Shown: positions 18,279-18,751, counted from the whole stretch's first letter. The stretch is DNA of 63,456 nt, filler included, from Circinaria calcarea (GCA_051942165.1; 5 parts of 5 records of this genome joined end to end with filler, not necessarily neighbours in it); one strand, 5' to 3'. Numbers and translations: made by a program. The notes: generated by a model from the letters alone, not told the origin.

Positions 18279-18751
18279 TTACATATCCAGCTCGGCGTCA
18301 CGCTCCTGAACGTATAATTCCGGCAGTGCCTTGCGAGCTTCCAACCACGCCTCCAGTCCAGTGTCACGCTCGTACAGGTACACATCCGCGTCTGCATCCC
18401 GCTTCACGATAAATGGTGCCAGACTTCCCGCAATAGCAGCACCTTCTTTTGCTACATGCATCACACCTCCAAAGCCCTTTTTGAACCCCTTCCAGAACTC
18501 TTTGATGTTGGGATCGGCATCACGTGCTCTAAGCGAGACATAGACGTCGGGGAATGCGTTACGTTCGGAGAGGTACGTGGTTTCTGCTTCGTAGAAGGCG
18601 GATGAGAAGGAGTCGCGCTCGTGGAGGTTGGGGAGTGCGGTAACTGGGGAATGGAGGCGATTAGTTGTGGAGACCGCGTGGACTCTCATGGTCTTTTGAT
18701 GAAGTTGTACTTACCGACTGTGAGCCAGGGGAGGATGAGGGTGTAGCGCAT
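18279..18751 (-). CDS. Small secreted prepro-peptide (133 aa), predicted Kex2/Ste13-processed precursor of a cationic amphipathic peptide
   Basis: Exon 1 18751-18715, intron 18714-18644 (GTAAGT...ACTAAT...CCCCAG), exon 2 18643-18279. Product: MRYTLILPWLTVVTA-LPNLHERD...LRARDADP-NIKEFWKGFKKGFGGVMHVAKEGAAIAGSLAPFIV-KRDADADVYLYERD... Confidence 0.85.

Follow-up and report, generated by a model that had tools for sequence, protein, structure and literature searches.

The window analysed here is the whole 63,456-nt stretch of DNA (filler included) from Circinaria calcarea, a lichen-forming fungus (Lecanoromycetes, Pertusariales, Megasporaceae). On the minus strand between 18279 and 18751 it carries a spliced gene for a 133-residue protein with the layout of a secreted peptide precursor of the kind cut by Golgi proteases, in which a predicted signal peptide is followed by acidic pieces ending in Arg and by a single Cys-free core of 35 residues. 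Comparison with its relatives makes it the single-copy member of a family of such precursors that is small, undescribed and apparently lichen-associated. The features of the gene and of its predicted product are as follows:

18715..18751, minus strand: exon 1, 37 nt, with the start codon, the first 12 codons and 1 nt; it encodes the hydrophobic portion of the predicted signal peptide and equals the N-terminus of the NCBI protein P0001 (see below)
18644..18714, minus strand: intron, 71 nt, phase 1, GTAAGT...ACTAAT...CAG
18279..18643, minus strand: exon 2, TAA stop (18279-18281) included
18522..18635, minus strand: N-terminal pro-region, residues 16-53, isoelectric point (pI) 5.0
18510..18521, minus strand: leader of two dipeptides, Asp-Ala-Asp-Pro (residues 54-57), predicted to be trimmed by a Ste13-type dipeptidyl aminopeptidase, with homologous leaders in relatives
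18405..18509, minus strand: core peptide, residues 58-92, 35 residues, conserved and repeated in relatives
18399..18404, minus strand: Lys-Arg, residues 93-94, Ile at P4, a dibasic Kex2 site of the canonical type, whose two residues a Kex1-type carboxypeptidase is predicted to remove
18282..18398, minus strand: C-terminal acidic tail, residues 95-133, pI 4.05, charge about -8

The gene runs from an ATG at 18751 to a TAA stop at 18281-18279. Its two exons join in frame, 402 nt of coding sequence giving 133 residues, and a branch-like ACTAAT site lies 17 nt upstream of the CAG acceptor of the intron; retention of the intron leads to a stop after 21 codons. The longest unspliced open reading frame (ORF), at 18689-18279, has a non-hydrophobic N-terminus, its best nine-residue Kyte-Doolittle mean being 0.63. 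The corresponding value is 2.34 for the spliced N-terminus and 2.4-3.2 in the seven relatives that have complete N-termini. The signal peptide is predicted to end after Ala15, with Val-Thr-Ala at positions -3 to -1. Both the splice and the predicted signal peptide are therefore supported by comparison with the hydrophobic N-termini of the seven relatives.

The original prediction for this locus had proposed the canonical 71-nt intron (18714-18644) and the signal-peptide exon, and both are supported by the in-frame join, by the relatives and by an identical public gene model. The existence of that model means that the gene is not hidden, as had been claimed. A word-indexed search of 5.8 billion proteins returned a single protein, 100% identical over the whole query, which is the 133-residue NCBI entry 'MAG: hypothetical protein Q9187_003396 [Circinaria calcarea]' (P0001). 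The locus is a real two-exon gene, already annotated and uncharacterised. A tblastn search with P0001 detected no second copy of it in the window (best non-self E 2.6).

Relatives of the protein were sought in three further ways. A phmmer search of 1.84 billion cluster representatives gave 19 matches at E<=0.001, and seven of these (P0002, P0004, P0006, P0007, P0010, P0013 and P0020; E 2e-21 to 8e-4) have the core and the architecture in common. P0002 is a 61-residue fragment, 78% identical to the window protein, from which most of the core is missing. A profile of the core (A1), made of seven units with one core per phmmer relative and searched against longer proteins, returned ten proteins, all with the family architecture and three of them new (P0021, P0022 and P0023). 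A search with an alignment of whole proteins (A2) returned four, none of them new. In total ten relatives were found in searches of 1.8 and 5.8 billion proteins, and the description of the gene as an orphan has to be abandoned. The only named relative is P0007, from Gomphillus americanus, a lichen fungus of the same subclass and a different order.

No Pfam family covers any member of this family. P0001 gave only sub-threshold matches to DUF4349 and DUF1491 in Pfam, and none to an antimicrobial-peptide family. A Pfam match of P0022 to the CAP domain (29 bits) lies in a Cys-free repeat region and was judged spurious. When metagenomes were scanned with P0001 and P0022, no DNA locus could be confirmed.

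The other 12 phmmer matches (P0003, P0005, P0008, P0009, P0011, P0012 and P0014-P0019) were set aside by eye, being large animal or bacterial repeat proteins aligned to the acidic tail or to low-complexity or biased stretches. In P0005, P0008 and P0014-P0019, bacterial beta-propeller-like repeats were aligned to the Tyr-Leu-Tyr-Glu-Arg-Asp-Thr-Gly-Leu-Glu stretch of the tail with library-wide E down to 2e-08, a reason to be wary of phmmer E-values for short acidic queries, whose significance is inflated by repeat proteins.

A common plan was exposed by cutting the proteins after each Arg that precedes Asp, Glu, Asn, Ser or Gly. A hydrophobic N-terminus is followed by short acidic pieces ending in Arg, then by the core, then by Arg, Arg-Arg or Lys-Arg and more acidic pieces, after which the core recurs in most family members. 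There are seven copies of the core in P0021, five in P0020, about six diverged ones in P0006, three in P0010, two each in P0013, P0007, P0023 and P0022, and one in P0001 and P0004. Within a precursor the cores are far more alike than the spacers, with identities of 0.96 vs 0.49 in P0021 and 0.95 vs 0.43 in P0020.

The core of the window protein is flanked by LRAR-DADP on its N-terminal side and by KR-DADA on its C-terminal side, as had been predicted. The region consisting of leader, core and Lys-Arg outscored both acidic flanks (local score) in all seven relatives that hold the whole region, and the reverse pattern, of conserved acidic flanks around an unconserved core, was not seen in them. 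In P0002, the fragment lacking most of the core, the tail scores best. On this comparison the core is the selected part of the precursor. Even divergent members retain the N-terminal aromatic motif, a His-Val in the centre and an Ala-Pro close to the tail.

The acidic tail of the window protein contains the DADA leader and three further Leu/Val-x-x-Arg sites. Behind the leader lies a second module (residues ~99-116), acidic and containing Tyr and Trp, which is conserved in P0002 and partly recognisable in P0004 after a leader of its own. This module may be a second released peptide, a neutralising partner or the remnant of a second core. In P0007 and P0023 a true second core stands at the position of this module.

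The relatives have two to seven cores to the one in the window protein, and the DADA leader after Lys-Arg has no recognisable second core, unlike in P0007 and P0023. Both facts could be taken to mean that the gene is non-functional, owing to a mis-predicted splice or as the decaying single-copy remnant of a multi-copy precursor. This is highly improbable, as the frame stays open through both exons, the intron has canonical splice signals and the N-terminus looks like a signal, as it does in the relatives; moreover P0002 and P0004 retain the single-core layout together with the tail.

P0022, a metagenome protein of 500 residues, is a composite 'cocktail' polyprotein that strings three other peptide types behind Lys-Arg sites. 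Its two family-type cores come first. After them a 40-residue peptide containing His and Trp and a Gly/His-rich peptide follow in three copies apiece, each behind Lys-Arg and an EAEA or DP leader.

The Arg residues of P0001 that follow the signal peptide are arranged in a highly regular manner. Leu, Ile or Val occupies P4 at all eight of them, which none of 100,000 shuffles reached, and Asp, Glu or Asn follows six of the eight, which 118 of 100,000 shuffles reached. Four of the sites lie in the N-terminal pro-region, after residues 22, 40, 51 and 53, each with Leu or Val at P4. The P2 residues of the eight sites are Glu (four), Ala (two), Lys (one) and Leu (one). For Kex2, Arg is obligatory at P1, Lys is preferred at P2 and an aliphatic residue at P4, with Arg, Thr, Pro, Glu or Ile tolerated at P2, and an expanded LxxR motif (K2PP) has been used to find Kex2-processed pro-domains (PMC8528282). 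The expanded motif, with Arg at P1, an aliphatic P4 and a disordered acidic pro-region, describes all eight Arg sites of the window protein. The precursor has a pI of 4.9, and AlphaFold2 (AF2) gave the whole of it a mean predicted local distance difference test score (pLDDT) of only 39, consistent with the lack of a stable fold. A Kex2-type convertase is, on these features, the likely cleaving enzyme.

The residues between the Arg site and the start of the homologous core consist, in the relatives, of X-Ala and X-Pro dipeptides only. Such leaders, of 2, 4, 6, 8, 10 or 12 residues, are present in P0004, P0006, P0007, P0023, P0013 and P0022, corresponding to DADP in P0001, and in P0020 and P0021 the leader length is 0. 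The trimming rule that was applied removed X-Ala and X-Pro only; the evidence lies in the trimming coming to a stop at the aligned Asn/Ser/Gly-aromatic start of the core. Ste13 removes X-Ala and X-Pro dipeptides, and Kex1 removes the basic pair (PMC6339444). In their sequences the leaders match the Ste13 signature, and the Ste13-type trimming put forward in the original prediction is in keeping with leaders of 0-12 residues before the homologous core start. The more general proposal of a proteolytically processed precursor gains comparative support, the core being the part that is conserved and repeated in the relatives, and the prepro-peptide processing model is well supported by the family comparison.

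It could be argued that the protein is not processed, or loses only its signal peptide, and is a small secreted protein of acidic character, for example an effector or a wall protein, in which the Arg-Asp spacing merely reflects helix periodicity. Most of the sites are indeed monobasic, and several of the Arg sites fall within low-confidence helices of the AF2 model. Near-identical tandem cores between variable spacers would, however, be hard to explain without processing, as would the strict X-Ala/X-Pro leaders and the aliphatic P4 at every one of the eight sites, and the low predicted confidence for the whole protein also weighs against an unprocessed product. This alternative is considered very unlikely.

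The core itself contains five Lys, two Glu and one His, giving a net charge of +3, a pI of 9.8 and an average mass of about 3706 Da. It has an amphipathic N-terminal half and a hydrophobic tail containing Ala, Gly and Pro. Its composition and charge are those given for the segment at 18509-18405 in the original prediction, which had also described the product as linear and free of Cys; the whole 133-residue protein is in fact without Cys. The Eisenberg hydrophobic moment is 0.60 for the best 18-residue window of the core (reached by 28 of 20,000 shuffles of the core) and 0.57 for its first 21 residues (reached by 11 of 20,000), so that the amphipathic helical periodicity that had been claimed stands up to this check. 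AF2 run on the core alignment predicted one continuous helix from the first core residue, with a mean pLDDT of 66 and a peak over the Lys-rich stretch. The window core combines a charge of +3, a moment of 0.57-0.60, the absence of Cys and a predicted helix. Linear cationic amphipathic antimicrobial peptides, which form a functional class and not a homology family, are marked by positive net charge, a high moment, absence of Cys, a helix at membranes and membrane permeabilisation; about half of the present family is near neutral.

Some likeness to known peptides of this kind was found. In the atlas, where cluster scores below 0.9 are leads only, the whole protein scored 0.76 with the Bombinin cluster and the core 0.80 with the Dermaseptin cluster. 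Among solved structures, the core profile matched SibaCec-A (6iha) with E 0.059 and stomoxyn (1zrx) with E 0.31, the E-values in the PDB to these two peptides being 0.059-1.1 overall, and a 14-residue stretch has ten residues in common with stomoxyn (HVAK..A.IAGS). The Pfam Latarcin precursor family (PF10279) was matched by P0021 with a summed 33 bits (cut-off 25) and no individually significant stretch, P0021 being a repeat protein; it was not matched by P0001. The look-alikes are all linear helical animal peptides, and they point weakly to physicochemical likeness, not to kinship.

The term 'cecropin-like' used in the original prediction is therefore apt as an analogy of design but not as a statement of membership. 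The Pfam Cecropin family was matched neither by P0001 at E<=10 nor by six relatives at E<=1, the Pfam stomoxyn family was not matched by P0001, and the PDB matches had E 0.06-1.1. Cecropins are helix-hinge-helix peptides. Like the window core, cecropin-type insect peptides have about 30-42 residues, a Lys-rich amphipathic N-terminal half with Trp or Phe near the start, a Gly hinge and a hydrophobic tail rich in Ala, Gly and Val. They differ from the window protein in kingdom and in precursor architecture.

The following course of events is proposed. The signal peptide would be removed after Ala15, leaving an acidic, largely unstructured pro-protein. In the late secretory pathway this would be cut after Arg at Leu/Ile/Val-x-x-Arg sites, one of them a canonical Lys-Arg and the others of the expanded LxxR type, probably by the Kex2-type convertase. 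A Ste13-type dipeptidyl aminopeptidase would then take off Asp-Ala and Asp-Pro, and a Kex1-type carboxypeptidase Lys-Arg, to give a Cys-free peptide of 35 residues and net charge +3, with presumed termini at residues 58 and 92. The anionic pro-pieces may neutralise the peptide in transit. At a membrane or interface the peptide would fold into an amphipathic helix with a hydrophobic tail and act on membranes, probably with an antimicrobial or cytolytic effect on bacteria, on competing fungi or on the alga. The window gene would be the single-copy form of a system that delivers two to seven copies per precursor in other family members. The reading as a whole, that a lichen fungus makes a prepro-peptide from which a membrane-active and probably antimicrobial or cytolytic 35-mer is released, is put forward tentatively, with a probability of roughly 45%.

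Several observations weigh against it. The public gene model that agrees with the splicing proposed here is a prediction on a metagenome-assembled genome. The repeat proteins set aside by eye as spurious, 12 of the 19 phmmer matches, have E-values comparable to those of the accepted relatives, so that assignment to the family depends on E-values and architecture together. At the site immediately in front of the core P2 is Ala, which is not one of the P2 residues listed as preferred, and that cut may be the work of another Arg-specific protease. In the close fragment P0002 the acidic tail equals or exceeds the core in conservation, with 32 of 39 residues identical (82%) against 15 of 22 for the core, and the tail may have a function of its own. 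All of the look-alike scores given above lie below the significance levels of the respective tools. Lastly, a cationic charge is not a family constant, a departure from what is usual among classical antimicrobial peptides. In P0006, P0010 and P0022 the cores carry only -1 to +1, and that of P0004, the closest full-length relative, has a net charge of 0 (two Lys, one Arg, two Asp and one Glu; this is a hand count on the uncut core, since the script had cut it at an internal Arg and scored a 21-residue piece, also of net 0).

Positive cores are found in P0001 (+3), P0013 (+6 and +5), P0020 and P0021 (+3, with one copy at +1), P0007 (+2, with five His) and P0023 (+4, second core), and the trimmed cores of the family thus range from -1 to +6. 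The word 'cationic' in the original prediction can be kept for the window core but not extended to the family. The traits that sequence comparison finds conserved are amphipathicity and the hydrophobic Ala-Pro tail, not charge. A membrane-active or antimicrobial role is plausible; given this range of charge and the neutral core of P0004, an antimicrobial or cytolytic role is one plausible function among several.

Near-neutral cores, in about half of the family, would suit an interfacial role better than a bactericidal one, and multi-copy precursors imply a need for bulk amounts of peptide. These points favour a role like that of the Rep1 repellents of Ustilago maydis, in which the peptides would assemble on the hyphal wall or at the air-water interface and aid wall hydrophobicity or hyphal adhesion in the thallus, with no killing. 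Rep1 resembles the window family in that one pre-pro-protein gives many amphipathic peptides of similar size, and differs in its basidiomycete origin and in that its peptides build amyloid-like fibrils bound to the wall (PMC3133707). The cores of the window protein, P0013, P0020, P0021, P0007 and P0023 are cationic (+2 to +6), however, and the core is predicted to be helical, not beta; no sequence relation to Rep1 was found, none having been tested for. Such a role is unlikely.

The conserved N-terminal aromatic motif, His-Val and Ala-Pro would also fit specific recognition, as expected if the peptide were a hormone- or pheromone-like ligand acting through a receptor on the fungus itself or on the photobiont. 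Kex2-processed repeat proteins (KEPs) have been proposed as sources of signalling peptides, and alpha-pheromone is made by the same Kex2, Kex1 and Ste13 steps (PMC6339444). Against this, the cores of the family, at 25-58 residues, are long compared with the 9-24 residues of alpha-pheromones given in the same paper, strong amphipathicity with a hydrophobic tail is more typical of membrane-active peptides, and no receptor gene is nearby, the neighbours being housekeeping genes. A signalling role is decidedly unlikely, and the membrane-active peptide remains the preferred reading.

As a precursor, the window protein can be compared with several known systems. KEPs are required to have at least three identical or near-identical repeats, each bounded by dibasic KR, RR or KK (Le Marquer et al. 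2019, PMC6339444). On the model proposed here, the window family resembles them in having a secreted precursor, cores cut after Arg in the secretory pathway and Ste13-type trimming (PMC6339444; Umemura 2020, PMC7329392). At least three repeats are present in P0021 (seven), P0020 (five), P0006 (about six) and P0010 (three), but not in P0001 with its one core. As to the dibasic boundaries, P0001 has Lys-Arg at the C-terminal boundary of the core only, the N-terminal one being Ala-Arg, and the sites of the family are mostly monobasic L/I/V-x-x-Arg. A KEP also has an N-terminal signal peptide, as a member of the predicted secretome; the spliced N-terminus of P0001 is hydrophobic (2.34) and has Val-Thr-Ala at positions -3 to -1, and the relatives are alike in this. 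The multi-copy relatives with three to seven near-identical cores fit the KEP class in spirit, with mostly monobasic sites, and the family is best described as an undescribed KEP-like family of prepro-peptides.

The closest architectural analogue is provided by the cupiennin and latarcin precursors of spiders. There, a signal peptide and an anionic propeptide are followed by cationic, linear, Cys-free helical peptides, between which lie short anionic linkers with Arg at both ends and, in many cases, a Glu no more than three residues from the Arg; the C-terminal Arg is removed later (PMC7889660). These precursors are animal, with no credible homology to the window family, and X-Ala/X-Pro leaders are absent from the spider scheme as set out in the accessible part of that paper. 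Among linear peptide toxins of fungi the best known is candidalysin, from Ece1p of Candida albicans. It is a ribosomally made, Cys-free amphipathic helix that Kex2, followed by Kex1, releases from a secreted polyprotein (PMC5784256). Ece1p has Lys-Arg sites between dissimilar peptides, whereas the window family has repeated identical cores, mostly monobasic sites and dipeptide leaders, and no sequence relation to candidalysin emerged from the phmmer or core-profile searches.

The core strings were not found in the searchable literature. Five shorter core motifs had no occurrence in the text supplements of PMC7329392 and PMC6339444, of which the long files are possibly incomplete. A search of the literature on lichen antimicrobial peptides with Kex2 gave nothing relevant, as judged by titles and the openings of abstracts.

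Among the ribosomal antimicrobial peptides that filamentous fungi make, those best known are rich in Cys, e.g. the defensin-like and AFP/PAF peptides. Control of partners and of the microbiome is poorly understood in the lichen symbiosis, to which a lichen-fungal family of linear helical peptides would add a new chemical layer. The layout, close to those of spider and insect peptide precursors, would clearly exemplify how a biosynthetic grammar can evolve convergently. In a bolder form of the proposal, the lichen-forming Lecanoromycetes own a family of ribosomal, linear, Cys-free, cecropin- or latarcin-like membrane-active peptides, mass-produced from one- to seven-copy precursors; the grammar of Arg, acidic linker, Arg and X-Ala/X-Pro evolved separately from those of insects, frogs and spiders; the peptides police bacteria or control or harvest the alga; and charge-variable paralogues tune the target range. 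In this full extent the proposal is speculative and rather unlikely. Monobasic LxxR precursors and single-copy members both escape KEP surveys that look for dibasic sites and three or more repeats. With a mass of ~3.7 kDa the predicted product is a short, synthesisable and directly testable molecule, and should the peptides prove structural or signalling instead, the gene still marks an undescribed family of secreted peptides.

The surroundings of the gene were analysed with Pfam over 12 long ORFs between 5954 and 29147, and only housekeeping domains were found. The neighbouring features are:

5954-11599, plus strand: Brr2/Sec63-type double helicase (long ORF, Pfam)
14221-15361, minus strand: DRE2 (Fe-S assembly), in two ORF pieces and hence with at least one intron
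17518-17808, plus strand: ORF of 96 residues, with no Pfam match even at E<=1
19601-19984, plus strand: basic Ser/Arg-rich ORF, ~100 nt upstream of the NUP133 ORF and probably the first exon of NUP133
20083-23460, plus strand: NUP133 (Pfam), a long frame without a start
26301-29147, minus strand: RSN1/CSC1-type channel (long ORF, Pfam)

The possibility that the gene encodes the precursor of a peptide made on the ribosome and modified after translation (a RiPP), of the ustiloxin/dikaritin kind, can be judged against this list. No tailoring enzymes (DUF3328/UstYa oxidase, tyrosinase or methyltransferase) were detected by Pfam among the 12 long ORFs, and within ~10 kb the Brr2-like helicase, DRE2, NUP133 and the RSN1-type channel are found instead, which argues against a RiPP cluster. 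Known dikaritin cores are also far shorter than those of the window family. Fungal RiPP precursors are likewise Kex2-processed repeat proteins (PMC7329392), a resemblance that leaves this possibility highly improbable all the same.

The original prediction had placed the gene between an STF2-like gene and NUP133. The latter is confirmed at 20083-23460; the label STF2-like, for the ORF at 17518-17808, is without Pfam support. NUP133 and the peptide gene have an 850-bp divergent intergenic region in common.

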